From positions 1-16,000 of the forward strand of contig CAYTNQ010000100.1 of the NCBI GenBank assembly GCA_964439175.1: a stretch of 16,000 nt of DNA, written 5' to 3'. The DNA comes from an uncultured Anaerolineales bacterium (GTDB lineage: Bacteria > Chloroflexota > Anaerolineae > 4572-78 > NAK82). Both the position numbers and the translations under genes were made by a program. Positions 1 through 16,000 of this stretch are shown here, piece by piece. The notes beneath the pieces are model-generated. The model saw only the letters and a list, made by a program, of their open reading frames with translations. It was not told where the DNA came from and ran no database searches. How positions within the stretch are numbered: the stretch's first letter is position 1; each line of letters begins with the position of its first letter.

Positions 1-145
1 CGTCGTCCCAAGATGCCGACATGCTCCTAATCCCACGGGCCACCCTGTTTTCCTTGCTTGAAGTGGCCTGTTACTCAACCTAAATTGGACAAAGTCCAGT
101 AATATATATCATCCTGTGTTCCAGAAAGGATAGCCGCACCTGCTT

Positions 146-3100
146 CTACGACCTCGAGACAGGCAACCTGACAAGCATCATCGTGCCGTCAGCTCCTGTC
201 TTTTCTATTGAAATTTCTCCTGCATACTTTTGCAACAGGAGACCGGTCAGCCACAACCCCAACCCAGAGCCCTCTCCAGGCCTCCTGGAAGGCACTGGCT
301 TGATGAAGAGCTTATCCCGTATGTTGGCTGGGATACCGGGGCCGGTATCCTGGATTTCCACTTCAAGCCGGTCGTCAACACGCCGGCTAACGATAGTCAG
401 GTTACCTCCATCGGGACTCATCGCTTTGTAACTGTTTTCGATCAGGTTGCGGAATATCTCGGTGATTTGCCCCAGAGAAGCCTGGATCAACGGCAGAGAG
501 TCGTCCAAGTTATAGGCGACCTTGACTGCCCCAAACCCGGCTCTGTCCTGATATTGCCCCCAAATCTGAGCCTGGGCCTCGCGCAGACTGGCGTTGATGT
601 CAACGGCTTGAACTTCAGTTTCCTTGAGCGGTTCCTGAATGCGGGCGATGTAATCCGAGGTGTACTGCGTGTTACGCTCGATGATGTCGAGGATTTCCTG
701 GATGGTCTCATTCGACGTGTCCACGCGCTTGCGCAGCCGGGTGACGTTGGGCACGATGATGTTGAGAGTGTTGTTGATGCGGTGCTGGATGGCGGCCGTA
801 ACCGTGCCCAGGGCAGCTAACTGCCTGGCGGCAATCAGTTCTTCACGCGTTGCTGCGTATAGATTTGCATTGTCCAGGGCAATGGCGGCCTGGCTGGCCA
901 TGGAGGAGAGGACCTGCAAATCTTGCTCGTCGTAAGCATGCTCTCGCTCCCAATCATAGATGGCGAGGACACCTATTACTCTCTCGGCAACTACCATCGG
1001 GACCGCAAGATGAGAAGCGGAAACTTCACCAACATACTCTCGATGGCCTGGTTCGTTATACCATGCCAGCGCTTCCGCGTGGGTTTTGTGCAAGATTGGT
1101 TTTCGAGTCAAGATGACTTCTTCTGTCTTCCCTCTCTTCGCTTTATCGATCTTGCGCGGTGCGAAACCCTTCTGCTGCTCAACATCTACACGCCTGCCTC
1201 TCTCCATCACCAGCCTGAAGGTAATAGTATCAGTTTTTTCATCGTACAAGGCAATGTAAATGTTCTGTGTACCGGTTAGTCTACGCGCTTGCCCGTAGAT
1301 TAACTTCAGGATTTCATCTTCCTTCAAACGAATGCCGGAGGTCAAGGTTTGCCCCACTTCGTTCAAGGCGCTGAGCGCATAAACACGCCGCTCAAGGTCC
1401 TGGTAGAGCCGCGCATTTTCGATGGCGATGGCCATCTGGTTGGCTATGGTTATTAACAGGTTGCGGTCATCATTATCGAATACGCAGGGCTGATCAAAGT
1501 TCTGTAATCCGATGGCACCGATGATTCTATCCTTAAAGAGGGCTGGCACCAATAAACAACATTTTACATCCTGGCGGAAAGCCTTTTCAACCTCATCTTC
1601 CCCCACAGCCCAAGCCTCAAAATCCTCGACAAGTAAGGGCTCCCTGTGGCGAATCACCCATTCGGTCAGGCCCCGACGCGTGCCAAAAGGTCGCGGGGCA
1701 TAAGGGCGACCCTCGACTTTAACCTCGTCGTCAATAAGCTGCCCCCTTTCGTAAACTAGCGGAAACCGGATAACGCCAGTATCATCTTCATAAAGAGCAA
1801 TGAACATGCTGCTGGTATCCATCAGCCCTGACATTTTTTCATATACTTGTCCGAGCTGGGCCTGAACCGGAAGAACGCTGCTGATTGCCCGCTGAAATTC
1901 GGCGACGGCCTGCAATGTGTCTTGTTGCCGGCGCAAGTTTATCGCAATTCCCAAATCCAGCGCCAGTGTCTCTAACATCTCCAGATTGTGCTGGGTAAAG
2001 CCGCCGACCTCATCTTTATCCGCAGAAATAACGCCAACGATCTCGTTCTCGATCTTGATGGGGGCTAAAATGATGGAGCGCAAGGCAGAGCGAGGTACGA
2101 CTTTGCCTGCTGTGAAGCGATCGTCGCTGGCAGCATCGTTTACCAATATTGACTCGCCAGTTTTAGCAACAGTGCCGGCTAAACCTTCGCCTGGCTTGAA
2201 ACGCCCGACTTCAGATACACCGTGAAGTGAGCCAATCCTCTCCATAGCCACTAATTCGCCCACTCTTTTATCCAGAATAAAAATAGTACTGTGACTACAA
2301 TTCAGAGTCCGTACAGCAGATTGAACAGCCACCTGGTATATCTGCTCCAGCACGGGCTGTTTAGCCAGGTTATTGGCTACATCATGGAGTATTTGGAAAT
2401 CGTTTAGCAGTGCCTGCGATTGCTGCCGCTGTTCCTGTTCTAACTGAAAGAGTCTGGCATTTCGAATGGCAACGGCAGCCTGGGCTGCAAAGGACTCGAT
2501 GACGTCCTTTTGCTCCGGGCCAAAGAACTGGGGCGTGCGATAGTTCACAAACATCACGCCCACAGTTTCACCGACTACCCTTAGCGGGATAATAGCAGAA
2601 GAAGCAACCTTCTCGCGCACCACAAATCGCTCATCCGGAGCATCATCATGGGGGATATCAAAATCTCTTGTCAACAACGAAGCCGCCCGTGCGTCGTGGA
2701 AGTACTGAGACTCCCCCATCTTTACCGCCGCCACCACTACATCGTCGTCGTATATCTTGGTCGGTATCAAATGAAGATGCAATCTCTCACCCATAAGTGT
2801 AGGCGGCAAGGCGAACTCATTGCGAGCCTGAATATACTGGTACAGATCTACTATATCAGCGTCCAGAACTTCTTGTGCGCTGTGCGCTATGTCCTCTAAC
2901 ACGCTATCCAGTGTCTGAGTTGGGTCTTCGATGGCAACCAACGATTGCCCAACCGCCTTCAACCTGGCAACCGCTTCTGCACGCATATCTGCCAATCGGT
3001 AACTCCACGAATTCGAGATAGCCATAGCAGCCTGCTGGCCGATCAGGTGGATAATCCGCTTTTCATCTTCGGAGAAAGAGTGTGGCTGCCTGTAATCAAC

Positions 3101-3538
3101 GTATAGGATTCCCAGGATGTTGTCGCCCACCCTTAGAGACAGCCCCATAAAGGCCTGGATGCCTTCTCGAGCGATGAAAGAACTCTCTTTTAGCATTTGA
3201 GGCTCTTCCCGTTCGATGTCCTCGCGGACGACCTCACCCTCTCGATGAACGCGCGCAGATAGCCGCCTCTTCTTATCGGCTTTTTCCTCGACCGGCAGAT
3301 CGTGGAGCAAGCCGCAGGCAGCGACGTTTTCCACGTCGTAGAATTCGCCAAAAGCGGGATGATAGGGATAAATTACCGCACAGTCAGCCCCGGTCATGTT
3401 ACACACGACTTCAACCAACAACTGATATACTTTCTTTGGCCTCTCAGCAATATGTCGTTGGGCCGCTTGTCCAATGGACAGGATCTGATCAAGAATCTCA
3501 GCTTGTTTCTCTTGTGATCCAAGGATGGAGCTATGCAT
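146..3538 (-). CDS. Large cytoplasmic multi-GAF sensor histidine kinase (HisKA_2-type H-box plus HATPase_c), no receiver domain
   Basis: 1130-aa ORF. C-terminus has HATPase_c motifs (EIQDTGPGIP, GSGLGLWL G-boxes). Preceding H-box AAIQHRINNTLNII resembles the HisKA_2/HWE-type dimerisation-phosphoacceptor region. The N-terminal ~850 aa consists of repeated GAF-like modules, about five. No hydrophobic TM segments seen. GGAGG Shine-Dalgarno at 3546-3550 (minus strand), 7 nt before the ATG at 3538. Confidence 0.85.
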   Translation of the reverse strand: MHSSILGSQEKQAEILDQILSIGQAAQRHIAERPKKVYQLLVEVVCNMTGADCAVIYPYHPAFGEFYDVENVAACGLLHDLPVEEKADKKRRLSARVHREGEVVREDIEREEPQMLKESSFIAREGIQAFMGLSLRVGDNILGILYVDYRQPHSFSEDEKRIIHLIGQQAAMAISNSWSYRLADMRAEAVARLKAVGQSLVAIEDPTQTLDSVLEDIAHSAQEVLDADIVDLYQYIQARNEFALPPTLMGERLHLHLIPTKIYDDDVVVAAVKMGESQYFHDARAASLLTRDFDIPHDDAPDERFVVREKVASSAIIPLRVVGETVGVMFVNYRTPQFFGPEQKDVIESFAAQAAVAIRNARLFQLEQEQRQQSQALLNDFQILHDVANNLAKQPVLEQIYQVAVQSAVRTLNCSHSTIFILDKRVGELVAMERIGSLHGVSEVGRFKPGEGLAGTVAKTGESILVNDAASDDRFTAGKVVPRSALRSIILAPIKIENEIVGVISADKDEVGGFTQHNLEMLETLALDLGIAINLRRQQDTLQAVAEFQRAISSVLPVQAQLGQVYEKMSGLMDTSSMFIALYEDDTGVIRFPLVYERGQLIDDEVKVEGRPYAPRPFGTRRGLTEWVIRHREPLLVEDFEAWAVGEDEVEKAFRQDVKCCLLVPALFKDRIIGAIGLQNFDQPCVFDNDDRNLLITIANQMAIAIENARLYQDLERRVYALSALNEVGQTLTSGIRLKEDEILKLIYGQARRLTGTQNIYIALYDEKTDTITFRLVMERGRRVDVEQQKGFAPRKIDKAKRGKTEEVILTRKPILHKTHAEALAWYNEPGHREYVGEVSASHLAVPMVVAERVIGVLAIYDWEREHAYDEQDLQVLSSMASQAAIALDNANLYAATREELIAARQLAALGTVTAAIQHRINNTLNIIVPNVTRLRKRVDTSNETIQEILDIIERNTQYTSDYIARIQEPLKETEVQAVDINASLREAQAQIWGQYQDRAGFGAVKVAYNLDDSLPLIQASLGQITEIFRNLIENSYKAMSPDGGNLTIVSRRVDDRLEVEIQDTGPGIPANIRDKLFIKPVPSRRPGEGSGLGLWLTGLLLQKYAGEISIEKTGADGTMMLVRLPVSRS

Positions 3539-3628
3539 ACTTCACTACCTCCGCGCCAACCATATCAACTGGTTGTGATTGCAGATCCAGGCGTCCACGA
3601 GTTGAACGCAGTGATACCGGCAAATCTG

Positions 3629-5014
3629 TCAGCGACTGGCAGCGTTCGGCGCGAGCACCGTGCAGCGCCACTGCTCAACCGCCTTCCGATACTCGTGTTC
3701 CCTGAACTCTAATCCCTTGTGGGCCAGAGAAACTCTTAACAAGGGAACGGGAATGCCAAACTGTTTAACTAGCCTGACGAGGTCTTTTCCTTCCAGCGTG
3801 CAGCCATCGTTTCTGGCGAGAAGCCGGTCAAGTTGGCGGTAGCCACGAGACAAAGTGCGGTCGAAGGCCTGAGCCTCCGCTTCTATGTATGCCAAAAGTC
3901 TGTCACGTCCACGGCCAAGATTTGGATGCCGTTTCCCATCCAGAACGATTTCGTGGTCAATGAGAGCCGGCAAGCAGCCAAGCGGATCAATCTGCAAGAT
4001 TCGCATCTGGGCCAATACCCTGCGAATCAGGATCCTCATCAGGCGTCTTCGTCCACCTTTTCCAGGCGGAGGTGCGCCGTCGGCAGCCAGGAATACCAAC
4101 GCCCTTAAGTGGTCTACCAGGATACGCTCGCTCTCTCTGGCATTGAAGGCGACTTCTACGTTCCAGTGGGAGTAGAAAGACCTCAAATCTTCAATGAGCG
4201 GTCGTACCGTCTCAATTTCAAAAACCGTCGGCTGACTCTCCAAGATCATTGCCACCCGTTCAGTGCCAATGACCGTTTCAGTAAAGGGATCTGCCATCAA
4301 AGACAGAGCGTCGGTCTCGGCATCTATCTCGGCAAAAATGAAGAGTGAATTGGCGAATTCGACAAACCGTCCACATTTACACCCAGGGCGACAATCAGGT
4401 CTACAACTCAGTTGAGAGCCACGGTCAAAGAACAACTCCGTATTTGGTCCACATTTTCGACTGGTTTCCTGGCCGTCAATCCCTCCGCCCTGCTTCCAGA
4501 AGTTGTGATCTGCCCCCAAGCCAACGACACGATCTTCAGGTAAGCCGAGGTCCCGCCAAGCTTGATAGGTTTCAAGGTCCTGGTTAAAGCGATGTCCCGA
4601 AATTTTCCCGCCAGCGAAGTAGGTTGCCCATAGGCGACTTGAGTCAATCTGCAGATCACGCGTCAAAAATTCCCACATACGTCGTATGGCGATTCGTCTA
4701 GTGTTGTGGCCGAATGAGAAAGCGCCGGGCATCTCAAACAAGCTGAGGTGGAGGTCACTCTTGCCGATTCTGTCCACGTCAAAGTGCCTGAAGCAGTTTT
4801 GTACCATCACGTAGTCATCATCGGGAGATCGACTCCCGAGTTGATCGATGGCGGTCTCGACCTCGGCCAGGCCAGCGCTCATGACAAACGTCATCGGGAT
4901 AGAAGGATGCAGCAGTGAGGTGCCCGGCAACTGCTTGAAGCCCAGGCTTTGATAGTAACGAACAAACCGGTCGCTGATTGCTTGTGGGTGCATAGGTTGG
5001 TCAGCTTTAAGCAC
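3629..5014 (-). CDS. Stand-alone alanyl-tRNA synthetase N-terminal-fragment paralog (class II catalytic core plus tRNA-recognition domain; no editing or C-Ala domains)
   Basis: The 461-aa ORF aligns with AlaRS along the whole catalytic fragment. [14 protein letters not shown] matches [25 protein letters not shown]...[11 protein letters not shown] matches QRCVRAGGKHND...FFEMLGNFSFGDYF. NFWKQGG...[10 protein letters not shown] matches [35 protein letters not shown] matches [28 protein letters not shown] matches [29 protein letters not shown]...[13 protein letters not shown] matches ADHIRACAFLIADG...RGYVLRRIIRRAV. It ends at the position equivalent to about residue 461 of E. coli AlaRS. The GTG start at 5014 overlaps the stop of the upstream SPFH gene by 8 nt; an alternative ATG lies at 4993. 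Confidence 0.8.
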   Translation of the reverse strand: [461 protein letters not shown]

Positions 5015-6020
5015 TCAATCGTTGGTTGTGTTCCCTGCGCGGCACACGCTTCAAAATGGCGAGATCGTCCTTGGTCAGAGGTCGGGATGGTCCAGGGGGA
5101 AGGTCGCTACGAGTTTCTGGACGCGCAGGTTGGCGTTCTGCGGCTGTATCTCGTTTCTTCGCCTTCGGTCTGGTGATGACGTTTGGCCCCTCCCCATCTC
5201 TGGCCATCTCGAACTCGACCTCAGACTCGGTATCTGCATCGTGCTCCAGGAGCAGGCGCTGGACTTTACCCGCGTCCACACCTTCAATGGAAGCCAACAT
5301 TTGAGCCAGCACGGCGTTGGACACGCCAGGAAAGCGCTGGCGCAAGCTATCCACATAGTTCGTCAGCCATTCGCTATCGATCTCCCTACCCCGACGACGT
5401 TTAATAGCTTCCACCACTTCATTTGATAAATTTCGCCCGGTCAGCACGATAGAGTGGGCAGGGTTTAAGATAACCCCCACTGAAGGCAATGTCTGCTCCA
5501 GTTCACGCTTAACCCCTTCAAGGAGCTGGCGGTAACGAGGCCCCCCAGGCGCTAAGGCTATAACGCCATCCATCGACGTAGCCTTAGGTGGCAACGGCAT
5601 GCGTTTTTGTAAATCTGAAATCTGGTTAACCAACGCCTCACGCATTTTTACCTCAACCTGGCGGTGACGCTCCCCCTCCCTGATTTGTACAAGCCTGGCC
5701 AACTTATCCCGGTCGCCCCCGGCTGCCTGCACCGGGTCAAAGCTACACCACAGGTTAAGTGTCAGTTCGTTGGGCACACCAAAGGCAAAGAGTCCAGGTA
5801 CAGTGACCTCGATGGGATGATCCCGTACTTCGACAGTTCGGACGACTCGCTCCAGTCCGGGGATTACCAGCACCAGGCCTGGACCCACTACACGCCGAAA
5901 ACGCCCAAGCCGATAGATCACCAGGCGCTCTTCATGAGGGACCACGCGCAGCGTAGCTCTGAGCACAATCGCGATGAGTATTACCAGCAAGACAACTCCG
6001 ACGATCAACAGGATTTCCAT
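5007..6020 (-). CDS. SPFH/band-7 (stomatin/prohibitin/HflK-like) membrane protein with N-terminal TM anchor and charged, probably disordered C-terminal tail
   Basis: N-terminal hydrophobic helix (EILLIVGVVLLVILIAIVL). Then VVPHEERLVIYRLGRFRRVVGPGLVLVIPGLERVVRTVEVR, which matches the SPFH consensus (vVpegeravvfrfGk..rvlgPGlhfiiPfidrv.kvdlr). The ORF-table start at 6026 is a TTG; the ATG at 6020 is preceded by AAGGAG (8-nt spacer). That Shine-Dalgarno overlaps the TAA stop of the upstream NTPase gene. Confidence 0.75.
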   Translation of the reverse strand: MEILLIVGVVLLVILIAIVLRATLRVVPHEERLVIYRLGRFRRVVGPGLVLVIPGLERVVRTVEVRDHPIEVTVPGLFAFGVPNELTLNLWCSFDPVQAAGGDRDKLARLVQIREGERHRQVEVKMREALVNQISDLQKRMPLPPKATSMDGVIALAPGGPRYRQLLEGVKRELEQTLPSVGVILNPAHSIVLTGRNLSNEVVEAIKRRRGREIDSEWLTNYVDSLRQRFPGVSNAVLAQMLASIEGVDAGKVQRLLLEHDADTESEVEFEMARDGEGPNVITRPKAKKRDTAAERQPARPETRSDLPPGPSRPLTKDDLAILKRVPRREHNQRLSA

Positions 6021-6032
6021 ATGCAAAACTCC

Positions 6033-7049
6033 TTATCCTTCATAGGTGCTCAGAAATTGAGCAAAGAGAGGGCTGAACCAGGTAGTGGGGGCTGACAGCA
6101 AACCGCGGCGGACCAAATGATCTATCGTATCTTGATGGTCTGGTGTATGCTGGCCTCGCGCCGCCAGCAAAGCTACCTCTTGCTCCTGCTCATGCAAACT
6201 CAGCAAAATCCGCCGGCATTCCTGCTGAACGTCAGGCTTGGCTGCAAAGTAGGTCAGTGGATCAGCACCCGACACCCCCTCGTTGACCCAGGTGTTAAAA
6301 ACAATCTTAAGCAACTGAGCATGGCCACCAGCAAGTGCGCGAATTTGGGTAAGCTCTTTGTTGTTAAGAGGTTTACCGGCGACTTCATTCAAGTGCATCA
6401 ACATTTGGCGTGCATCATCCGGAGTGTATGGCTCCAGAGCGTAGATATTGTGGCGAAATAGATCGTAAAACTTCGATCCGTTTTCCATATGATGGCTTTG
6501 TCCCAAAATGTGGGGCAGACGCTTAGTAAAGACCAGATAACTCAGCGCCTCGCGATTGCCTTCACTCCGCAGACCGTTCAATCGCTCCAGCATCGCCAGC
6601 GGTCCCGTCTGGAACACCGCATCGAAATCGTCTAAGACAAACATAACTTTGTGTTTGAGCTCCTGGCAAACCCATCCCAGCCGCGCCCGCAGCGTGCTCA
6701 ATGCACGTTCTTCTTCAGAAATGGGGATTATCTTATTGTCGTCTGGGATTGGGGCAAGTTCCTTCGTCGCTTGGTTCAGCGCATCCAGCATCATCTTCCA
6801 CAGGCTAATGGGATCACCCGGCCAATGTGTTGCGTCCACAATAGGAAAGTGCATACGCTCTACATTTTGCTCAATGTGTTGGGCATTGCGCTGAATATCG
6901 CGCAGGAAGTTGACGAGATTAGATTTGCCAATACCAGCGACACCGACAAAACCCAGAGACTCCCCGCGCAATGCGAAGCGAATGATCAAATTGATTTCAT
7001 CTGCGCGATACGTAGGCTGATAGCGAGGTGAGATTATGTTACGTGTCAT
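6033..7049 (-). CDS. AAA+/P-loop NTPase with C-terminal winged-helix-like region (Orc1/Cdc6- or STAND-like ATPase)
   Basis: Walker A GVAGIGKS (GxxGxGKS). Walker B VMFVLDDFD. Sensor-like LVFTKR. C-terminal DHLVRRGLL helix-turn-helix-like segment. Start is ambiguous: ATG at 7049 (MTRNIISPRY...) or TTG at 7124 as in the ORF table; neither has a strong Shine-Dalgarno. The stop is translationally coupled to the SPFH gene. Confidence 0.7.
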   Translation of the reverse strand: MTRNIISPRYQPTYRADEINLIIRFALRGESLGFVGVAGIGKSNLVNFLRDIQRNAQHIEQNVERMHFPIVDATHWPGDPISLWKMMLDALNQATKELAPIPDDNKIIPISEEERALSTLRARLGWVCQELKHKVMFVLDDFDAVFQTGPLAMLERLNGLRSEGNREALSYLVFTKRLPHILGQSHHMENGSKFYDLFRHNIYALEPYTPDDARQMLMHLNEVAGKPLNNKELTQIRALAGGHAQLLKIVFNTWVNEGVSGADPLTYFAAKPDVQQECRRILLSLHEQEQEVALLAARGQHTPDHQDTIDHLVRRGLLSAPTTWFSPLFAQFLSTYEG

Positions 7050-7167
7050 CTGAAACTTGTCCCATTCGACTATATGAAAGATGACCTTGTGAAGGGAGAG
7101 AGGAAGACAGAAGCTGACCCACAACGGATTGCTCGGGCTTGCGCTGTTTTATGTTATCATAAGTTAG

Positions 7168-7194
7168 ATTACAATATAATCACCCCATTGTCAA
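7168..7194 (-). promoter_or_regulatory. Candidate sigma70-like promoter for the NTPase-SPFH-AlaRS-like operon
   Basis: On the minus strand: TTGACA (7194..7189), 15-nt spacer, TGTAAT (7173..7168). It sits in the AT-rich 211-bp divergent intergenic region. The plus strand of the same region has a TATAAT at 7175-7180 that could serve ybaK. Confidence 0.3.
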
Positions 7195-7245
7195 GAACGA
7201 ATTTCAAGTCGTGGGGCGTTTCAAAGGGAGCAAATAGGAGGGAGT

Positions 7246-7332
7246 ATGGCTCAACTGAAAAAACTGGTTTGTGCAAAAGCCCGAAAAGCTTATAATCGTG
7301 AGTTACGAAAATCCATTGATGCTGGCCGCTGA
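7246..7332 (+). CDS. Hypothetical 28-codon small basic ORF (MAQLKKLVCAKARKAYNRELRKSIDAGR), possible leader or small protein upstream of ybaK
   Basis: ATG at 7246 is preceded by AGGAGGGAG (Shine-Dalgarno, about 4-5 nt spacer). It is in the same frame as ybaK. TGA at 7330-7332 is followed by 3 nt and then the ybaK ATG. The product is rich in Lys and Arg. It is below the ORF-track length cutoff. Confidence 0.3.
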   Translation: MAQLKKLVCAKARKAYNRELRKSIDAGR

Positions 7333-7335
7333 TCT

Positions 7336-7824
7336 ATGAGTAACGACAAGACAAACGCCATGCGCGTCCTGGATGCGCGCAAAATCCCGTATCAAGTTTT
7401 CACCTTTTCGCCCGACATCCACTCGGCCGCTGGCGTGGCTGAGGCCATCGGACTGCCACCCCGGCAAGTTTACAAAACCCTGGTGGTGCTGCGTTCCCAG
7501 GGAAAGCCGATGTTGATTATGGTCGCCGGCGACCGAGAGCTGGATCTGAAACGGGTAGCCAAGGCAGTAGGCGAGAAGAAAGTGCGCATGGCTTCGCACA
7601 AAGAGGCGGAAGCGCTGACCGGCCTGCAGGTGGGAGGTATTTCGGCGTTGGCGCTCCTCAATCGCCCATTCGAGGTGTTCATCGACCGTCCCGCCACTGA
7701 ACTGTCCCACCTGTTGGTCAGCGCCGGCAAACGGGGAATCAACCTGCGGCTGGCCGTCCCAGACCTCATCCGCGTCACCCGTGCCCACATCATCGAGGCG
7801 ACCGAACAAGCCGAACATTCCTGA
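7336..7824 (+). CDS. ybaK: YbaK/ProX-family aminoacyl-tRNA trans-editing deacylase (Cys-tRNA(Pro) deacylase-like)
   Basis: 162 aa. N-terminus TNAMRVLDARKIPYQVFTF matches E. coli YbaK TPAVKLLEKNKISFQIHTY. PPRQVYKTLVV matches the conserved (R)VFKTLV motif. Length matches stand-alone YbaK (about 159 aa). Confidence 0.85.
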   Translation: MSNDKTNAMRVLDARKIPYQVFTFSPDIHSAAGVAEAIGLPPRQVYKTLVVLRSQGKPMLIMVAGDRELDLKRVAKAVGEKKVRMASHKEAEALTGLQVGGISALALLNRPFEVFIDRPATELSHLLVSAGKRGINLRLAVPDLIRVTRAHIIEATEQAEHS

Positions 7825-9361
7825 TTTGGAAATCGTCCCAGGCAAATTCATCGTGTTGCAAGTCCGGTGCCAGACGGGCGGCAGTGACGGTTAATTCGTT
7901 GTAGCCGGGCCGCAAGGCCGAGACCGGTACGTCACGACGCACGGTCAACCAGCGACGGGCGAAATCTTCCATTGGCAGGTCAGGCGACAGGGCCACATCG
8001 TTAACCACCAGACTGGCCCCGATCTCGTTCTGTTGCATCAATTCCAATACCAACACCCAATCGGAGGTCCCAGGGTCGCGCAGGTAAAAGCCGCCAGTCC
8101 AGGCGATACTTGGCTTGTGCCCCGCAAAGAGAGGCCACCACGGCGACAGGAGGTCGCTGTCGCCCAGGTGCACTACCGCGTCCGGCGCCAGTATCGGCAC
8201 CACCCCGACCTCAGCCCCAGTTGCAAACTGCTCAGAGTGATCGCCACCTTTTGCCTCCAGCCCCCTGCCCCTGGCCCCCAACTTCTTGCTCCCCTCCGCC
8301 TGGCGCCACATCTCATATGCTGGCCGGGGATCCCCTGTCGAGTCAATCAGGCTATAGCCTCCAAAAGGATCTCCTGGCTCTGGCTGCGACAGATTCCACA
8401 CCGTCACCAATTCCACCCAGGGCCATTCGCGGCGGACGCGGTCCAAGGCACCAGTCAGATACGCTCCCTGCTGCGCCAGGCTCACACCGAGGCCCGGCTG
8501 ATCGGGCGGCGCGTCCACTGTCCAACCCATCTCAGTAATCCACACCGGCTTATCGCCATCGCCCTGTTCGAGCATAATGGCCCGCAGATCCTCGAGGCGA
8601 GCAAAAACCAGCCCGTCGTTGGCACTTTCTGGCGCGTCAGGAGGCAGTCCGAAGCCATACGGGTGTGCGCCCAGCACGTCGAAGTAAGGAGCAGCGCCCG
8701 CCTGATACATGCCCCGCAAAAAGATGCGTTCATCCATGGCACGCTCGCCATCGCCGTTGGTCGGGGCCAGGCCCGCCGCAATCACCAGCGCGTCGGGGTC
8801 ACCCGCCTTCACTGCCTGGTAGCCAGCGCGTAACAACTGCACATAAGCAGCCGGATCGGGCGCATGGCCACCCCACTCCAGCGCCAGGTTGGGCTCATTC
8901 CAGATGATATAGGCTCGGATGCGACCCCGGTAGCGCCAGGCAACTCGCTCCACGAAGTGCCGATAGTCTCCCAGCGCCTCAGGCGGTGCGTTGAGCGGTG
9001 GTTGCACATCGCTGACCCAGGGCGGATGCTGGTCGAGGCGCACCACCAAATCCAGGCCATAATATTCGGCGCCAGCGACTACCTGGTCAGTCACTTCCCA
9101 GTGGAACTGGCCCCGGGTGGGCTCGATCTCGCGCCAGGCAAAGACCTGCACCACGGTGTCAAACCCGGCTGCCCGCGCCAGCGCCAACGAACGGTCATCG
9201 GCGCGTAAGGTGTGGGCTGCCAGTCGCAGCCCTCGCTCCCCCGACCGCCGGGACAGCATGTCGATTGGGTCAGGTGAGGTGCGAGTGCACCCAGTTCCGA
9301 TCAGCAGCCAGGCAAACGCCAACAGAATAAGGGAGGCGATAGTGTGTACCAAACGCTGCAT
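7790..9361 (-). CDS. Secreted clan GH-A (GH5-like) glycoside hydrolase, probable lipoprotein, with extra C-terminal domain
   Basis: N-terminal signal peptide ending LLIGTGC (lipobox-like). FAWREIEPTRGQFHW and IIWNEPN (acid/base Glu in the NEP motif). WITEMGW (nucleophile Glu in the TE motif). The last ~150 aa have no recognisable domain. Its 3' end overlaps the ybaK 3' end by 35 nt (convergent). Confidence 0.75.
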   Translation of the reverse strand: MQRLVHTIASLILLAFAWLLIGTGCTRTSPDPIDMLSRRSGERGLRLAAHTLRADDRSLALARAAGFDTVVQVFAWREIEPTRGQFHWEVTDQVVAGAEYYGLDLVVRLDQHPPWVSDVQPPLNAPPEALGDYRHFVERVAWRYRGRIRAYIIWNEPNLALEWGGHAPDPAAYVQLLRAGYQAVKAGDPDALVIAAGLAPTNGDGERAMDERIFLRGMYQAGAAPYFDVLGAHPYGFGLPPDAPESANDGLVFARLEDLRAIMLEQGDGDKPVWITEMGWTVDAPPDQPGLGVSLAQQGAYLTGALDRVRREWPWVELVTVWNLSQPEPGDPFGGYSLIDSTGDPRPAYEMWRQAEGSKKLGARGRGLEAKGGDHSEQFATGAEVGVVPILAPDAVVHLGDSDLLSPWWPLFAGHKPSIAWTGGFYLRDPGTSDWVLVLELMQQNEIGASLVVNDVALSPDLPMEDFARRWLTVRRDVPVSALRPGYNELTVTAARLAPDLQHDEFAWDDFQIRNVRLVRSPR

Positions 9362-9396
9362 CAGAATCCCCTTACGCTATACGGCATACAAAGTAC

Positions 9397-9473
9397 TGCG
9401 TATTGCGCGCTTCGCGTGCGTATTGCGTGTTGCGTAGTGGATATTGCGTCCGGGATGCTGAGTGCGCGCAATA
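9397..9473. repeat. TATTGCG direct repeats (9401, 9421, 9442; about 20-bp spacing) plus inverted copy CGCAATA (9467-9473) upstream of the glycosidase gene
   Basis: Read directly from the sequence: TGCGTATTGCG at 9397-9407 and 9417-9427, TATTGCG at 9442-9448, and CGCAATA at 9467-9473. They lie in the 127-bp region between the glycosidase start (9361) and the oxidase stop (9489). Confidence 0.35.
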
Positions 9474-9488
9474 GGCAGGTTCCAAGAT

Positions 9489-11108
9489 TCACGGAAATAC
9501 CAGCTTGCCCGGATTCATCACACCTTCGGGGTCGAAAGTTCGGCACAGGCTGCGCAGGGCTGCCATACCCACTTTCCCCTTTTCGGCCGGCAGGTAGGAG
9601 GTGTGGTCGACGCCCACGCCATGTTGGTGGCTGATGGTACCGCCGGCGGCGACGATGACATCGCTGGCGGCGGCCTTGAGAAGACGCCAGCGCCGCAGGG
9701 TCTCGCCGGGGTCTATGCCGTGCGGGCTGGAGTCAGCCAGAGGCAGTCGAAAGAGGTAGGTGACGTAGATGCTGGCACCGTCGGTGTAAATGTGAGACAA
9801 ATGGGCGAAGACATGGACACGCTCCCCAACCTCCTTTAGCCCATCCCGCAGGGCGCGCCGTATGGCATCCGCTGTGGGGAAAACGTCTAACCAGCGGACG
9901 GCAGTCTCCAGTGTATCCACAGCGTAGCCTCGCTCCCAGAGCGTGTTGCGCAGGTAGGGAGTGCGAAAGCGGCTCTTGCGCCACTCTTCCCCCAACTTAC
10001 GTCCCACACAGACACCGCCGTAAGCGCGGGCGACTTCCATCACCTGCTTGCGGGTTGCTTTCACTGCGTCGTCACACCCAGTGATACCAACAAAAAGTAT
10101 ACACCTGTTCGGACCCAGTCCACGCAGACGCAGCAGCCGCTCCAACAAGCTCACCAGCCCTTCGTGGCCGGCCAGGGCCAGGGTGGTGGTCGTCTCGACA
10201 GTGTCGCTCAGGCGCAACATTGAAAGAGGCAGCCGGGCCTGAGCCATCTCGCGGACGGCAGCCACACCCTGCGCCCAAACCGGGAAGAAGATGGCGTGGA
10301 ACTCCTCCCGTTCGGGCAGCGGGCTGACCCGCAGAGTGGCCTGGGTGATGATCCCCAGCCGCCCCTCGGAGCCAAGCACAAGCTGCCGCAGGTCAGGCCC
10401 CGCGGCACTGGCAGGGAAAGGTGGCAGATTCAGCCGCCCCATGGGCGAGAGCAGCCGTCCGCCTGCGAACAACTCTTCAATGCGTCCATAATACAGGGAT
10501 TGCTGTCCACTGGAGCGGGTGGCGATCCAGCCGCCTAGCGTAGAGAGCTCAAAGGATTGGGGAAAGTGCCCCAAGGTATAGCCTCGCGCCCGCAGACTTG
10601 CCTCCAGGCGTGGACCGTCTACCCCGGCACCAAAAGTCGCGAGCCGGCTCACCTCGTCGAGGGCAAACCGGCGGTTGATGCGGCCCATATCCATGGTGAG
10701 AACCGGGGCATGGCCTGGAGACGGATTTACGTGACCCACGACGCTCGTCCCGCCGCCATAAGGAATGAGGTGGGCACCAACCCTGGCAGCGAATGTGATA
10801 AGTTGCGCTACCTCTTCCTCAGATGAAGGGAAGGCAATGCCATCCGGGAAGGCCGGAATATGCCCACTCCGAATAGCAACCCAGTCAGGTAGACTCTGGC
10901 CGCAAGCGTGGCACAAGCGCGCTTCGGCGTCAGTGGTTACCAGCGGATAGGCAGGCAGGCGACCGCGAGGGACGGCGCGAAGCACTTGGGCTAACGCGGC
11001 GTCTTGCGGCGGCGTCGCTGGGCCGAGAACCTCCTCCAGAAAGCGAAGCGCCGAGGGAGAAAGGGGATACGCAACGGCCTGGTCACCCCATCCATTCCAA
11101 CGTCGCAT
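9489..11108 (-). CDS. FAD-linked oxidase, alkyldihydroxyacetonephosphate synthase (AGPS)-like (FAD_binding_4 plus C-terminal oxidase domain)
   Basis: N-terminal RRWNGWGD motif characteristic of AGPS-like enzymes. PYGGGTSVVG FAD-binding segment. C-terminal HQHGVG typical of vanillyl-alcohol-oxidase-family FAD oxidases. ATG at 11108 (TTG at 11111 in the ORF track) is preceded by GGAGG at 11118..11114 with a 5-nt spacer. Confidence 0.8.
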   Translation of the reverse strand: MRRWNGWGDQAVAYPLSPSALRFLEEVLGPATPPQDAALAQVLRAVPRGRLPAYPLVTTDAEARLCHACGQSLPDWVAIRSGHIPAFPDGIAFPSSEEEVAQLITFAARVGAHLIPYGGGTSVVGHVNPSPGHAPVLTMDMGRINRRFALDEVSRLATFGAGVDGPRLEASLRARGYTLGHFPQSFELSTLGGWIATRSSGQQSLYYGRIEELFAGGRLLSPMGRLNLPPFPASAAGPDLRQLVLGSEGRLGIITQATLRVSPLPEREEFHAIFFPVWAQGVAAVREMAQARLPLSMLRLSDTVETTTTLALAGHEGLVSLLERLLRLRGLGPNRCILFVGITGCDDAVKATRKQVMEVARAYGGVCVGRKLGEEWRKSRFRTPYLRNTLWERGYAVDTLETAVRWLDVFPTADAIRRALRDGLKEVGERVHVFAHLSHIYTDGASIYVTYLFRLPLADSSPHGIDPGETLRRWRLLKAAASDVIVAAGGTISHQHGVGVDHTSYLPAEKGKVGMAALRSLCRTFDPEGVMNPGKLVFP

Positions 11109-11136
11109 CAACGCCTCCGGTTTCTTCGTGACCGAA

Positions 11137-11255
11137 TTATCCCAAAACGATTTGGGATAATTTTGGATAAATTATAGAGATATTCTAAGAATCGGCGACC
11201 AACTTGGCATAAATTTGGGATAAACTTGGGATAACTTTGGGATAACTTTGGGAAT
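11137..11255. promoter_or_regulatory. Array of TTGGGATAA-type 9-mers with strict 11-bp periodicity plus a perfect 10/4/10 palindrome, in the oxidase promoter region; candidate operator or iteron array
   Basis: Palindrome TTATCCCAAA-acga-TTTGGGATAA at 11137-11160. Direct copies start at 11152, 11163 (TTTGGATAA), 11204 (TTGGCATAA), 11215, 11226, 11237 and 11248 (TTGGGAAT). Every offset within a cluster is exactly 11 bp. A TATAAT sits on the minus strand at 11176..11171 between the two clusters. GANTC sites at 11189-11193 and 11252-11256. Confidence 0.6.
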
Positions 11256-11271
11256 CTCAGACGTGATTGGC

Positions 11272-12645
11272 TTATTTCAGTATGTAATACGTGCCCCGTT
11301 TGTCGCCCACTTTGAGCAGCAAGCCTTTGTCTACCAGATCGGCCAAGTCGAGGCGCAAGGTCTCGGGGGAGACGTTGGGGCAGATGGTGCGGTAGTCGCG
11401 GTTTGTGATGCGCCCGAACTCACGCACGTGAGCCAGCGCCCGCATCTGGCGCTCGTTCATATTCTGCTCCCATGGTGGGGATGGGCGCCGTTCGCGCACA
11501 TTGCGGAGGGTAACGCTGAAAGAGTAAGGCGTGGCTTTGAAATCGGGTGGCGGGTGGCCGCGCTGCAACATCTCTTCGATCATGCGATCGATGCCCAACC
11601 CCAACTCCTCAATGTAGCCCCACTGAAAGAGGCCAGCCACGATGCGGGGATTGCGCGAAAAGTGCTCTTCGACGATGTTATCTACCGTGATATAGCCGGG
11701 TAGGCCGCCGGGGCTGATCACTTCCAGCCGATCTTCGAACATGCGGATCTCCACGCGCCGGCCGGAGAGGCGGTAATCCCGATGGGCGATGGCGTTTACC
11801 AGCGCTTCGCGTACGGCGAAGCTGGGATATTCAGGTTGCTCCTCCCGCTGAAGGCCGACTACCACGGCCCCTACGCGCATCTCTTCCCAAACGATGTTCC
11901 ACGCTGATTCCAGCAAGCGAGCTAACGGTCCTTCCAATTCGGCGCGCCGGCCATATCCGGCCAAACCATCCTTGCCACGCGGCTCGCTGCCCACAAAGCG
12001 CACGAAGACAATGCCGCTCTGGGATATGAACTCCTGCGGGCACTTGCCGAAGAGAAGTAAACCCGAAACGGTGGGCGTGCCGTCCGGGGTTAAGGCACCG
12101 ATACTGATTAAGTGATCGTCCACTGTGCCGCTAACCGGACGCCGTCCTCGCTCTGCCCGCTTCTCCAGATATTCTTCAATGACGGCGTCGTCCATATCGG
12201 TGCGGCGCGCGCCGCCGACTGGCTCCGCCTCGAAGTCGCCACTGGACTTGGTGGCAGCGAGCTGGCGGATAGCGTCGCCCCCCAGCGGCCGGTTCCCGGG
12301 ACCGTGGCGGATGAGCACCCGGCCATCGGCTAGGCTATGTAATTCCGGGCTGCGGGCCACACTGATGTGCACTACGGTGCCCTGGGGCAATTCGGCCTGC
12401 CCCCATTCGGTAGCGACGGGAGGACGGCACAATCCAAGAGCTTGCTGAAGAAGCCCTTCCACATCCTCGTCCAGCACATCGCCGGTCACTTGCCCCTCCG
12501 GCGTGATACCAATCAGAATGGTGCCACCATCGGCGTTGGCGAAGGCGACCAATGTCTCGGCCAGCCCCTCCACCTCAGGATCCGGCAAAAAGGCGGTGGT
12601 TTGATTCGGCCCGCGAGCTAGCAAATTAGAAAGGTGAGTTCGCAT
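11272..12645 (-). CDS. AlbA_2 (Schlafen-like divergent AAA) plus HATPase_c_4 plus C-terminal winged-HTH putative transcriptional regulator (often misannotated as a RecG-like helicase)
   Basis: N-terminal LAETLVAFANADGGTILIGI (AlbA_2 signature). REALVNAIAHRDY (HATPase_c_4 signature). C-terminal ITNRDYRTICPNVSPETLRLDLADLVDKGLL winged helix. Confidence 0.85.
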   Translation of the reverse strand: MRTHLSNLLARGPNQTTAFLPDPEVEGLAETLVAFANADGGTILIGITPEGQVTGDVLDEDVEGLLQQALGLCRPPVATEWGQAELPQGTVVHISVARSPELHSLADGRVLIRHGPGNRPLGGDAIRQLAATKSSGDFEAEPVGGARRTDMDDAVIEEYLEKRAERGRRPVSGTVDDHLISIGALTPDGTPTVSGLLLFGKCPQEFISQSGIVFVRFVGSEPRGKDGLAGYGRRAELEGPLARLLESAWNIVWEEMRVGAVVVGLQREEQPEYPSFAVREALVNAIAHRDYRLSGRRVEIRMFEDRLEVISPGGLPGYITVDNIVEEHFSRNPRIVAGLFQWGYIEELGLGIDRMIEEMLQRGHPPPDFKATPYSFSVTLRNVRERRPSPPWEQNMNERQMRALAHVREFGRITNRDYRTICPNVSPETLRLDLADLVDKGLLLKVGDKRGTYYILK

Positions 12646-12761
12646 CCTATCTCACTGCACCTAGACTCTACAAGAGGACTAATCAACTTCTCCAACCATT
12701 CTACTTCATCACATCTTCTTTTCCAAAATTTGAACAAATACCAAGTCCTCCCAAACGTAGC

Positions 12762-13865
<1,104 letters not shown>

Positions 13866-13907
13866 TTACACCGGCCCTTGTTCTACAATCTACCCCCCCT
13901 GACTAAG

Positions 13908-15071
13908 CTAAATCTGATCCCAAAAACCTAGCTGGTGAGAGGGGCGGTGACCATTGAGCAAAATGAAGGGAGCAGTCCGGCCCGCGACGGCGCCCAAGGC
14001 ACGCAAGTCAGACAGGTTCTGCAGGTGACCCTGGCGGCGCGCACGCAAAATGGCGTCAGCGCTGCGCGGACCAATGCCCGGCACGCGCAATAACTCCCTG
14101 CGGCTGGCCCGGTTGATTTCTAACGGCTGCTCCGCCAGGTGCTGGCGCGCCCAGGCCAGCTTGGGGTCGACGCCAACCGGCAGCAGGCCCCGGTGGTCGA
14201 AAGGGAGTTCGTCCAGGGTGAAGCCGTAGAAACGCAGGAGCCAGTCAGCCTGGTAGAGGTGGTGTTGGCGGATGGGAGGCGTGCGATCAGCACCGGCCAG
14301 TGGCGTGTCGGGCACAGGGTTGAAGCCAGAGTAGTAGGCACGGGCTAATTTCACCTGGCGGTAGAGTTGGTCGGCAGCCATCAGTAGCTCGCGGTCGCTC
14401 TCGCCCGCCGGGCCGACGACGAATTGCGTCGTCAGGCTAGGTGTTTTGGCCAGCAGCCCTTGTGCCCTGGGAATCTCGTAAGCCCAGCGCATGGCCTGCA
14501 GCAACTCCCCGGCAAAGTCCTTTTGCGGGGCCAGGCGGGCCAACCTGGCCGCGTTCGCGCCTTCCAGGTTAATGGATACCCGGTCGGCCAGGCGAAGCGC
14601 ATGCTCTACCTGCGACCGTTCGGCCCCCGGCATGATCTTCAAATGGACGTAGCCGCGATATGCGTATTTACGCCGGATCAACTCGACGCTGGCCAACATC
14701 GGATCCATGGTTTTGGTCCCGCCACCAACGACCCCGCTGCTGAGAAACAGCCCTGTGACGACCCCCGCCTGCTGCATACGGTCGAATTCGCGGGCCAGTT
14801 CGTCGGGGCTCAAACGGACGCGGACGGTGCTGCCCCGCCCCGCCCGAAAGGGACAGTAGTGACAGTTCCGCTCGCAAGCGCTGGTCTGCATGGTGCGCAG
14901 CACGGTCATCGGACCGTCCGGCCGCTGAACCTGATAGAGAGACCTGTCCAGAAAATCGCGCTTGGCTTGTTGGCGAGGCGTCAGCATCGGTTCGCCATCA
15001 CACTCAAGCCTGCTCTCATGGGCCAGCAGTTGCAGCTTCTGTTGAGCGTCAGGTGTGATAAGCGTGTGCAT
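13908..15071 (-). CDS. Radical SAM protein with C-terminal helix-hairpin-helix (putative DNA modification/repair radical SAM family)
   Basis: CxxxCxxC motif (CERNCHYCPF) about 65 aa from the N-terminus. C-terminal LRVPGIGPRSADAIL HhH motif. Length 387 aa. Confidence 0.7.
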   Translation of the reverse strand: MHTLITPDAQQKLQLLAHESRLECDGEPMLTPRQQAKRDFLDRSLYQVQRPDGPMTVLRTMQTSACERNCHYCPFRAGRGSTVRVRLSPDELAREFDRMQQAGVVTGLFLSSGVVGGGTKTMDPMLASVELIRRKYAYRGYVHLKIMPGAERSQVEHALRLADRVSINLEGANAARLARLAPQKDFAGELLQAMRWAYEIPRAQGLLAKTPSLTTQFVVGPAGESDRELLMAADQLYRQVKLARAYYSGFNPVPDTPLAGADRTPPIRQHHLYQADWLLRFYGFTLDELPFDHRGLLPVGVDPKLAWARQHLAEQPLEINRASRRELLRVPGIGPRSADAILRARRQGHLQNLSDLRALGAVAGRTAPFILLNGHRPSHQLGFWDQI

Positions 15072-15102
15072 ACTCCTATTATACGAACGTTTGTTCGGTA
15101 CG

Positions 15103-16000
15103 TCAAGAAGATATCTCGCGAGCCAGGCTCGCCCATTCGTCCAGACTGAGCGTCTGGGCGCGGCGTCGGGGATCTACCCCAGCCCGAGTCAGAGCGCCGA
15201 CCATTTCGGTCGGGGACAGATCCAGGCCGGCAGCTAAGGCATTCTTGAGTTGCTTGCGCTTCTGTCCAAACCCGGCGCGGACGACGCGGAAGAAAGTCTC
15301 TGCGTCGGGCACCTGGACCGGCGTTGCGTCGTAGGTGTCAATACGGACCACTGCCGAATCCACTTTGGGAGGTGGGACGAAGGCCCCGGCAGGGATTTTG
15401 GCGACGATCCGCGGCTGGCCGTAGAACCGTACGCTCACCGCCAGCATACTCATGTCACCCGGTCTGGCGACCATCCGCTCGGCAACCTCACGCTGCACGG
15501 TCAGCACCAGCCGCCGGGGGGGCGGGTCCGCCTCCAGCAGATGGCGGATGGCGGCCGAAGTGATGTAATAGGGCAAGTTGGCGACGACGACGTATATAAG
15601 AGGAGACTGGAGATTGGGAGATTGGAGATTGGCAGATTGCCTGCCCCCCGGCCCGCTGGCGCGAGCCCGGGCGGGCTGGCGGGTAGGCCAGGGGAGATTG
15701 GGGGGCTGAGGGCCACGCATTAAGGCGGCCGGGTCAAGCTGCAAGATGTCCCCCTGTACCAATTCTAGATGGGGCAGGTACGCCAATTCCTCCCGCAGCA
15801 GGCCGATCATCGCCTGATCCAGTTCGACGGCGACGACGCGTCCGGCAGCCCGGGCCAACAAGCGGGTAAGAGTCCCCAGGCCGGGTCCGATCTCCAGCAC
15901 CGCCATCTCGGATGATAGTTCCGCTGCCTCGACGATCTTGCGTAGAATATTGGGGTCAGCCAGAAAGTGCTGCCCCAGCCCTTTACGCGGGCGCAGATTG
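15103..16000 (-). CDS. rsmA: 16S rRNA (adenine1518/1519-N6)-dimethyltransferase RsmA/KsgA, 5'-truncated by the window edge, with an approx 35-aa Pro/Arg-rich insertion
   Basis: VLEIGPGLGTLT (SAM motif I). VVANLPYYITS (KsgA NLPY motif). The reading frame stays open from 15906 to the window end, and the upstream codons translate to NLRPRKGLGQHFLADPNILRKIVEAAELSSE, the canonical KsgA N-terminus. The true start is therefore beyond 16000. Confidence 0.85.
   Translation of the reverse strand, partial: NLRPRKGLGQHFLADPNILRKIVEAAELSSEMAVLEIGPGLGTLTRLLARAAGRVVAVELDQAMIGLLREELAYLPHLELVQGDILQLDPAALMRGPQPPNLPWPTRQPARARASGPGGRQSANLQSPNLQSPLIYVVVANLPYYITSAAIRHLLEADPPPRRLVLTVQREVAERMVARPGDMSMLAVSVRFYGQPRIVAKIPAGAFVPPPKVDSAVVRIDTYDATPVQVPDAETFFRVVRAGFGQKRKQLKNALAAGLDLSPTEMVGALTRAGVDPRRRAQTLSLDEWASLAREISS
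15602..15639. repeat. Tandem heptamer (G)AGATTG x4-5 inside rsmA, encoding the SANLQSPNLQSP part of the insertion
   Basis: ggagactgg-agattgg-gagattgg-agattgg-cagattg, read directly at 15602-15639. Confidence 0.6.

Follow-up and report, generated by a model that had tools for sequence, protein, structure and literature searches.

The stretch of DNA considered here (the window) comprises 16,000 nucleotides (nt) from an uncultured Anaerolineales bacterium of the Chloroflexota (assembly GCA_964439175.1, contig CAYTNQ010000100.1, positions 1 to 16,000), and its left part is occupied, from 146 to 7049, by four co-oriented genes on the minus strand. In the direction of transcription, these encode an AAA+ NTPase of 338 amino acids (6033-7049, with an ATG at 7049 that agrees with the source gene call), an SPFH/Band 7 protein of 337 amino acids (5007-6020, assigned by Pfam), a 454-residue paralog of alanyl-tRNA synthetase (AlaRS) that we designate AlaRSL (3629-4993, assigned from Pfam, a family alignment and a structural model), and a multi-GAF histidine kinase of 1130 amino acids (146-3538, assigned from Pfam and the coordinates of its motifs). 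A first-pass annotation made from the letters alone had placed the first three of these minus-strand genes correctly and had identified them correctly, as judged by Pfam and, for the fold of the NTPase, by AlphaFold2 (AF2) modelling and Foldseek searches; it went on to treat the three as one functional unit. That grouping does not hold, since the kinase, which the annotation omitted, proves to be the near-invariant partner of AlaRSL. Here we describe this association together with a fixed remodelling of the AlaRSL active site and a variable set of downstream effectors in related loci, and we argue that AlaRSL may provide the input to a conflict or cell-death cassette that is driven by the kinase.

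The four genes are closely packed, with gaps of 12 nt between NTPase and SPFH, 13 nt between SPFH and AlaRSL, and 90 nt between AlaRSL and kinase. At the first junction (6029-6035, minus strand) the TAA stop of the NTPase gene (6035-6033) overlaps the AAGGAG Shine-Dalgarno sequence of the SPFH gene (6034-6029), whose ATG follows 8 nt further on at 6020, much as had been read before. The second junction had been read as an overlap between the SPFH stop and a GTG start for AlaRSL; the GTG at 5014 is indeed present in the sequence and overlaps the stop, but the length of nearly all full-length homologs, which corresponds to about 454 amino acids, and the source gene calls (454, 338 and 337 amino acids for AlaRSL, NTPase and SPFH) agree on the ATG at 4993, 13 nt after the stop. 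The kinase gene is preceded by a GGAGG of its own; a scan of the stretch from the AlaRSL stop to the kinase start showed no terminator-like site, and comparison of relatives revealed no conserved element in this spacer except the Shine-Dalgarno sequence. A further Shine-Dalgarno sequence and ATG (AGGAG-N-ATG, opening a protein that begins MSASWDD; 1-21, minus strand) lie 125 nt past the kinase gene, in a sequence that ends 145 nt past it. By synteny with relatives, this fifth gene, cut by the window edge, probably encodes a stand-alone response regulator. The operon is one of at least four genes.

A candidate promoter upstream of the NTPase gene (TTGACA-15 nt-TGTAAT, 7168-7194, minus strand) had been proposed, and the two hexamers are present as described; their 15-nt spacer, however, lies outside the usual 16-18 nt, so that a consensus scan with spacers of that range missed the site, and promoter-like sites are no commoner in the region than in shuffled sequence (6 found against 6.4 expected), leaving it a weak candidate. 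All four genes fall within a compositional island (1-7335) of 52.3% GC, in which GC at third codon positions (GC3) is 55-58%, against 61.3% GC and a GC3 of 69-75% in the rest of the window. The fall in GC that had been noted for the three-gene segment is therefore real, but it amounts to 8.3 points (53.0% against 61.3%) and not to 12-15, and the low-GC block begins at the left edge of the window and reaches about 7335, taking in the kinase gene (52.0% GC). The window contains no tRNA gene and no Rfam family.

Pfam resolves the window kinase, a predicted cytoplasmic protein, into five GAF domains, an H-box whose histidine is codon 919 (782-784), and HATPase_c. The generality of its position beside AlaRSL was examined in 90 loci, 10 of them obtained by exact look-ups and a genome scan and 80 by a metagenome scan with the family alignment, in which neighbouring open reading frames were labelled by iterative hidden Markov model searches seeded with the window proteins. 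Of the non-redundant loci, 68 extend for 400 nt or more past AlaRSL; in 66 of these, drawn from two phyla, a GAF-containing (kinase) gene lies directly downstream on the same strand, at intergenic distances of -94 to +242 nt, and in the remaining two, a small open reading frame stands between AlaRSL and the GAF kinase. The loci at hand speak against an adjacency limited to a single recent lineage. The second phylum is represented by a Desulfobacteraceae locus (L005), the one locus returned by a single-protein genome scan, which lies in a metagenome-assembled genome (MAG) and has the order two GAF domains, AlaRSL, overlapping GAF kinase, response regulator, and response regulator-metallophosphatase fusion.

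The two proteins are also found as one polypeptide, with AlaRSL-GAF fusions occurring in at least four separate clusters (50% identity). P0260 (1718 amino acids), recovered on six contigs from different sequencing runs, consists of AlaRSL, five GAF domains and HATPase_c; P0261 (1300 amino acids) consists of AlaRSL and five GAF domains; and P0242 and P0243 (about 1450-1490 amino acids) consist of two AlaRSL modules, two GAF domains and HATPase_c. The fused genes keep the company of the unfused ones: P0260 is followed by two stand-alone response regulators and by receiver fusions to APH/TCAD9 and to CHAT, P0242 by a response regulator and a PNP_UDP_1 protein, and a compact version (L094, with the fusion gene at 8001-13157; L095 is of the same kind) is made up of one fusion gene and four receiver genes, in L094 with a distant relative of the NTPase divergently upstream. 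In a Mantel comparison, AlaRSL distances follow those of the N-terminal 190 kinase residues (r = 0.47, p about 5e-4) more closely than those of the catalytic end (r = 0.18); these values are uncorrected for phylogeny, and the co-variation of AlaRSL with the kinase N-terminus offers modest evidence that the two may be coupled. The associations themselves are established with high confidence, and the conserved core of these loci is AlaRSL together with a cytoplasmic multi-GAF histidine kinase.

AlaRSL matches Pfam tRNA-synt_2c (PF01411) with 219.7 bits over profile positions 2-423 of 552, and scores below the alaS equivalog (TIGR00344, 215.1 bits against a cut-off of 457). It ends at residue 454 without a Pfam match to tRNA_SAD or DHHA1, so that the editing and C-Ala domains are absent and only the aminoacylation and tRNA-recognition domains are present, which bears out its earlier description as an editing-less paralog. 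A search of 5.8 billion proteins returned 564 matches, the best 120 of which share 47-100% identity with it; full-length homologs nearly all measure 435-490 amino acids, and the named records are MAGs of Anaerolineae and other Chloroflexota. When a family profile was run against 1.84 billion cluster representatives, about 55 clusters (50% identity) scored 310-1115 bits, and canonical AlaRS proteins of 860-900 amino acids appeared from 303 bits downwards. Metagenomes supply hundreds of loci of the family, the majority of them from Chloroflexota; a search of the IMG/VR viral contigs gave no relatives, and the plasmids searched with AlaRSL yielded canonical alaS only, at 30% identity or less. The AF2 model of AlaRSL (pLDDT 87.8) resembles AlaRS catalytic fragments with TM scores of 0.75-0.79 at about 25% identity, and the class II fold, the motif-2 Arg69 and the motif-3 Arg242 are all retained.

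An alignment of the family with the E. coli and A. aeolicus enzymes, whose numbering was checked on R69, K73, W170, N212, V214, D235 and G237, allowed conservation to be counted over 110 members, and it separates two kinds of active-site residue. Those that deal with ATP and the adenylate (R69, D76, H86, F90, M92, W170, E183, E209, N212, G239, E241 and R242) are kept in all 110. An equally uniform set of changes, M43L, V214L, D235E, G237V and deletion of AGGK (70-73), is likewise found in 110 of 110; in addition, position R85 is hydrophobic and H87 is replaced by leucine. Asp235 (which contacts the alpha-amino group), Gly237 and Val214 belong to the alanine pocket of canonical AlaRS. The canonical enzyme reads the G3:U70 pair through an Asn in the SNEGRGY helix and through the YDTYGFP Asp, and both elements are exchanged as well, SNEGRGY for PPGKGGRxR and YDTYGFP for VKxxGxP, with an invariant Lys in the latter. 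Three inserts are specific to the family: AGGxxxGHxF, GGIDGQE after W170, and a four-cysteine segment, SCxPDCRPGCxCGRF, which stands in place of the canonical AlaRS loop GGPPGSPEEDGDR and is probably a zinc knuckle that would have no counterpart in the canonical catalytic domain.

In the window, all on the minus strand, this signature reads QNCFRHFD where the AGGK loop is deleted (4778-4801), the four-cysteine insert at residues 196-210 (4364-4408), EFANSLF for V214L (4340-4360), ETVIGTER for D235E and G237V (4256-4279), the replaced first G3:U70 reader element (4043-4072), and LVKQFGIP in place of the other reader (3749-3772). Both QxCFR[HY]FD and the Glu235 of an E-x-x-x-G-x-E-R motif 3 are retained in divergent members of 400-420 amino acids and in the fusions, although Val237 is lost in a few divergent members; the signature and the canonical D-T-G-x-G-x-E-R motif are mutually exclusive. 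One divergent member of 405 amino acids (P0287) lies on a 1.5-kb contig without gene context.

In our reading AlaRSL is a selected, functional protein that very probably still binds nucleotide but is not built for the activation of alanine or for canonical recognition of tRNA(Ala). Charging or mischarging of tRNA(Ala) by AlaRSL appears unlikely, because no member of the family retains Asp235, Gly237, the AGGK loop or either of the G3:U70 readers, and the remodelled pocket, the lost loop and readers, and the four-cysteine insert together indicate that it is therefore not a housekeeping AlaRS. Tandem versions are also present: in open reading frames of 910-920 amino acids (L089, 3138-5894; L090, 1597-4356; P0241), two AlaRSL modules follow one another, both complete and with the E/V signature kept, an arrangement that suggests that the module may act as a dimer.

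What the kinase might act on can be seen in the related loci, where the usual order is kinase, one or two stand-alone receivers, and then receiver-effector fusions. In a Pfam census of 58 sampled genes downstream of the kinase, 45 encode a receiver domain (Response_reg). The effector domains are diverse, with CHAT and Schlafen/SLFN_AlbA_2 in nine proteins each, TCAD9/APH in four, TIR in three to five, trypsin, EAD11 and metallophosphatase in two each, and HD-CE, PNP_UDP_1, caspase, EAD7 and nSTAND1 in one each. When receivers from relatives were compared with PADLOC models, weak matches to PDC-M60B/C were the only result. We attach moderate confidence to a role of the cassette in defence or programmed death, because a constant sensing core is combined with variable lethal effectors and lies in a compositional island.

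The two genes at the head of the operon stand in a different relation to AlaRSL. The NTPase carries Walker A (GVAGIGKS, 6921-6944) and Walker B (MFVLDD, 6627-6644) motifs, which in its family of 338-345-residue proteins take the forms GxAGxGKS and MFVLDD, and its Pfam matches fall under the cut-off (AAA_22, 26.1 bits; AAA_16, 21.4 bits). With its AF2 model (pLDDT 89.8), the top Foldseek matches are archaeal Orc/Cdc6 proteins, over the full length and with E values of 4e-7 to 2e-6, and the 'archaeal ATPases' PAB2304 and SSO1545 (TMq 0.54-0.57); STAND proteins (Avs3, Dark) follow more distantly. As modelled, the protein is an ORC/Cdc6-like AAA+ ATPase with a lid and a C-terminal winged helix, in line with the winged-helix assignment made in the annotation. 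The SPFH protein scores 35.3 bits against PF01145 (Band_7; cut-off 23.6), has E. coli QmcA as its best PDB sequence match, and, as read from its sequence, combines an N-terminal hydrophobic helix, the 20-mer MEILLIVGVVLLVILIAIVL, with a charged C-terminal tail. None of the window proteins matches an NfeD partner in Pfam.

The co-occurrence of NTPase, SPFH and AlaRSL is found in all close relatives examined (L006-L010, 72-85% identity), in the same order, and in a diverged form in L015, but the pair is separable. An SPFH homolog follows the NTPase gene in every context examined (L006-L010, L091-L093), and in L091-L093 the pair occurs without AlaRSL; L091 comes from a MAG (GCA_964612485.1) in which the AlaRSL-kinase locus (L001) has no NTPase-SPFH genes beside it. 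Next after the pair comes a gene for a 970-residue AAA protein in L092, and genes for two proteins of 208 amino acids in L093. As to wider surroundings, in L091 (1083-8715, minus strand) the pair adjoins divergent genes for an AAA_16-TCAD9-APH protein and a 1616-residue ATPase_2/TPR protein, and in L093 (5086-6621, plus strand) it lies beside a PNP_UDP_1-bDLD3 protein; the pair may itself be part of defence-like neighbourhoods.

In a tree of AlaRSL, the upstream context is clade-specific. Clade 1, which includes the window, has NTPase-SPFH upstream; clade 2 has a large GAF protein, with or without a receiver; clade 3 has a membrane zinc-ribbon protein, two SPFH proteins and a TPR/peptidase-S24 protein; and the remaining loci have none of these. 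The clade-3 block is exemplified by L032 (4241-9173), where a membrane zinc-ribbon protein of about 330 amino acids (316-368 across the clade), two paralogous SPFH proteins of 450-485 amino acids and a TPR protein with a peptidase-S24-like domain precede AlaRSL, kinase and response regulator; blocks of the same type are present in L027, L029, L031, L033, L034, L040, L042, L052 and L054. A relationship between the clade-3 zinc-ribbon protein and the NTPase was ruled out (hhalign probability 0.1%). Across the loci, SPFH genes lie within four genes upstream of AlaRSL in 11 of 37. Because the pair without AlaRSL and AlaRSL without the pair both occur, NTPase-SPFH would be an optional accessory and not a core subunit, and the data fit a separable, portable two-gene membrane module that might act as an additional input or as a scaffold.

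To the right of the island, a gene for a Cys-tRNA(Pro) deacylase of the YbaK type (7336-7824, plus strand; 143 bits with TIGR00011, whose cut-off is 153) is transcribed divergently from that of the NTPase. Its composition is host-like (60% GC, GC3 72%), it forms part of the high-GC flank, and it is absent beside relatives; on these grounds it was ruled out as a functional neighbour of AlaRSL, and its position next to an AlaRS paralog is probably a coincidence. Further along the flank, the minus strand from 11272 to 15071 encodes a Schlafen AlbA_2 and HATPase_c_4 protein, an N6/N4 DNA methylase with RAMA, and a radical-SAM and helix-hairpin-helix protein. The Schlafen AlbA_2 protein of the window has no receiver domain; Schlafen/AlbA_2 is a frequent receiver-fused effector in the related cassettes. 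Between its gene (11272-12645, minus strand) and that of an FAD-linked oxidase (9489-11111, minus strand), an AT-rich spacer holds 4.5 copies of the 11-nt unit TTGGGATAAAT (11204-11253, TRF score 72), an array that resembles an iteron or regulator-binding array. A second repeat, (GGAGATT)n at 15602-15639, lies within the gene of an RsmA/KsgA-like rRNA adenine dimethylase (15103-15906, minus strand; PF00398, 151 bits), where it codes for an NLQSPNLQSP insertion inside a longer Pro/Arg-rich insert of the protein.

Taken as a whole, we favour, at about an even chance, a reading in which AlaRSL, derived from an aminoacyl-tRNA synthetase (aaRS), is the input module for the kinase that drives a conflict or cell-death cassette, with NTPase-SPFH as an accessory. 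The window would then carry the first genes of a signalling cassette that was acquired horizontally. AlaRSL would bind ATP and a small amino-acid-like ligand, which is suggested by the fact that the three pocket substitutions all add bulk, or else the acceptor end of a tRNA, which the retained basic helix of the protein could hold; our confidence in the exact ligand is low, as against high confidence in the gene anatomy and associations. The state of AlaRSL might be passed by direct contact to the first GAF domains of the kinase, which, to judge from related loci, would phosphorylate 'buffer' receivers that stand alone and effectors fused to receivers (CHAT, TIR, Schlafen, trypsin, caspase, PNP, metallophosphatase, TCAD9-kinase). 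Since the arrangement matches that of the Detocs system, the output would be an arrest of growth or the death of the cell, either as phage defence or as programmed cell death, and in the clade of the window the AAA+ NTPase and SPFH protein would be docked upstream as an accessory membrane module.

More tentatively, AlaRSL could be a bacterial counterpart of GCN2, reading uncharged, damaged or foreign tRNA acceptor ends, or the availability of amino acids or ATP, and setting off a histidine-kinase phosphorelay through which suicide effectors (CHAT or caspase proteases, TIR, Schlafen, PNP) are released, with SPFH-AAA+ as a membrane-damage co-input in some lineages; if true, a two-component pathway of immunity or cell death would for the first time be seen to use an aaRS-like sensor. 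Even on the broader premise that AlaRSL is a sensor, it would reveal how the trigger is detected in a two-component defence or death system, which is still unknown for Detocs, and would tie surveillance of the translation apparatus to bacterial phosphorelay signalling. Repurposed aaRS paralogs (HisZ, PoxA, AcmF, the GCN2 HisRS-like domain) have each opened new biology, and the compact fused versions make the system directly testable.

Several observations weigh against the sensor-cassette reading. The window itself holds the kinase only and ends before any receiver, so the output arm is reconstructed from related loci, and none of the four window proteins matches a PADLOC model; the defence-type role that had been suggested earlier fits the downstream effector repertoire of relatives. 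Contact between AlaRSL and the kinase, like the ligand of AlaRSL, is deduced from gene order and fusions only. SPFH genes of differing types stand upstream in at least two separate AlaRSL clades, and the link with SPFH proteins may be more than accessory. Finally, the strict retention of ATP, Mg and motif-3 residues is at least as much to be expected of an active enzyme as of a passive sensor.

This last point underlies the main rival, in which AlaRSL still forms adenylates as a working enzyme and supplies the GAF domains with a small signal, for which a product derived from an aminoacyl-adenylate, a dinucleotide of the Ap4A type, or a metabolite or protein that has been aminoacylated would be candidates, and the cassette is a signal synthase with its receptor kinase. 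The invariance of the catalytic residues and a pocket change that is fixed, as in altered specificity and not in decay, would be expected of it; GAF domains bind small molecules and nucleotides, so that fusion of AlaRSL to a GAF array would suit a locally produced ligand, and aaRS paralogs (PoxA, aa:CP ligases, AsnA) usually remain enzymes. We nevertheless consider it unlikely, given that no candidate acceptor or product can be identified, that the motif-2 loop which closes over ATP and the acceptor end is four residues shorter in all members, and that an N-terminal place on a kinase is typical of a sensor domain. An ordinary physiological two-component system, for instance one responding to amino-acid or nitrogen status or controlling development in filamentous Chloroflexota, strikes us as rather improbable, even though multi-GAF kinases and CheY-like receivers are abundant as housekeeping regulators in these phyla, many loci have plain receivers only in the sequence available, and neither a PADLOC match nor relatives in viral contigs or plasmids speak for defence; the receiver-fused domains are of conflict type (CHAT, TIR, trypsin, caspase, PNP, Schlafen, EADs) and vary around a constant core, and the cassette lies within a low-GC island.

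Three further interpretations fare worse. It is decidedly improbable that AlaRSL transfers Ala or Gly from charged tRNA to a nucleotide-like acceptor in the adenylate pocket, in the manner of AcmF, with which it shares a truncated two-domain architecture and an Asp-to-Glu change at the alpha-amino position (AcmF D232E; PMC12945691): N219Q and the loss of most ATP-binding residues are reported for AcmF, but AlaRSL has its ATP residues and N212 intact, neither of its G3:U70 readers survives, and its neighbours are signalling genes and not a biosynthetic cluster. We give only a very slight chance to the machine that the first-pass annotation had envisaged, a membrane-localised, NTP-gated aminoacylation or mischarging module of NTPase, SPFH protein and AlaRS fragment, acting as a toxin or in aminoacylation of lipid or cell wall. 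The tight spacing and common orientation of the three genes in the window and its closest relatives, and the SPFH genes upstream in other AlaRSL clades, are what it would predict; but the pair and AlaRSL occur separately, even in one MAG, the constant partner is the kinase, nothing places AlaRSL at the membrane, and the changes to the alanine pocket, the AGGK loop and the residues that recognise tRNA(Ala) extend to every member. That AlaRSL might be a housekeeping AlaRS split from separate editing and C-Ala parts has next to no probability: homology, and the YbaK-type deacylase next door as a superficial hint of a trans-editing partner, are outweighed by a TIGR00344 score of 215 bits against a cut-off of 457, by changes fixed throughout the family (D235E, G237V, AGGK deleted, G3:U70 readers lost), by the clear profile score gap to canonical AlaRS of 860-900 amino acids, by the existence of histidine-kinase fusions, and by the host-like GC of the YbaK gene and its lack of conservation beside relatives.

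The comparison with known systems begins with the accessory pair, which resembles HflK/C-FtsH and QmcA-YbbJ in that the gene of an N-terminally anchored SPFH protein is coupled with that of a P-loop ATPase. The ATPase here is a predicted soluble ORC/Cdc6-like winged-helix AAA+ protein and not FtsH, and, unlike SPFH-NfeD operons, the window has no NfeD gene. AlaRSL itself shares its two-domain fold and ATP-site residues with the catalytic fragment of E. coli AlaRS (1-441/461N, PDB 3HXU; TM about 0.77 at about 25% identity), from which it differs in its pocket, motif-2 loop and tRNA readers and, relative to the full enzyme, in lacking editing and C-Ala domains. The only characterised truncated AlaRS-like enzyme that we found in the literature is AcmF, an aminoacyl-tRNA-dependent transferase of ascamycin biosynthesis with D232E and N219Q, in which most ATP-binding residues are reported to be lost (PMC12945691). 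Compared by description, AcmF and AlaRSL both have two domains only and both carry Asp-to-Glu at the alpha-amino site; AlaRSL differs in its invariant R69, E209, N212 and R242, its four-cysteine insert and its lack of G3:U70 readers.

The use of an aaRS paralog as a regulatory module has precedents in the HisRS-like domain of GCN2, an aaRS-derived, non-charging module coupled to a kinase (PMC13580269), and in HisZ; in these, as with AlaRSL, the paralog is coupled to a kinase or a regulated enzyme, and AlaRSL is in some cases fused to its kinase. The partner of AlaRSL is a bacterial histidine kinase and its ancestor an AlaRS and not a HisRS, so that the likeness is one of analogy and not of homology, with ligand binding putative. 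Searches of full-text literature yielded AcmF and general reviews only and described no AlaRS-like partner of a histidine kinase and no AlaRSL family, and Kaur et al. 2020 and 2021 mention no AlaRS-like component.

The closest parallel in overall organisation is Detocs, which consists of the kinase DtcA, the stand-alone receiver DtcB and the receiver-effector protein DtcC (Rousset et al. 2023, bioRxiv 10.1101/2023.01.24.525353). There the receiver that stands alone has been proposed to act as a buffer against leaky kinase activity, and the effector domain is swappable (bioRxiv 10.1101/2023.01.24.525353). Detocs and the related loci described here have in common a kinase, one or two stand-alone receivers, and receiver-effector fusions with swappable lethal domains that include PNP; this likeness lies in the gene layout of the related loci, the window proteins being without a PADLOC match. 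They differ at both ends of the pathway. The Detocs kinase receives its input through TPR repeats, where the present system has a multi-GAF array and an AlaRS-like protein, and among the outputs CHAT, Schlafen, TCAD9-kinase and TIR, rather than PNP, dominate here. What is known already is the two-component conflict cassette as such; what is apparently new is an aaRS-derived input, the fixed redesign of its active site, and the SPFH/AAA+ accessory that precedes it.

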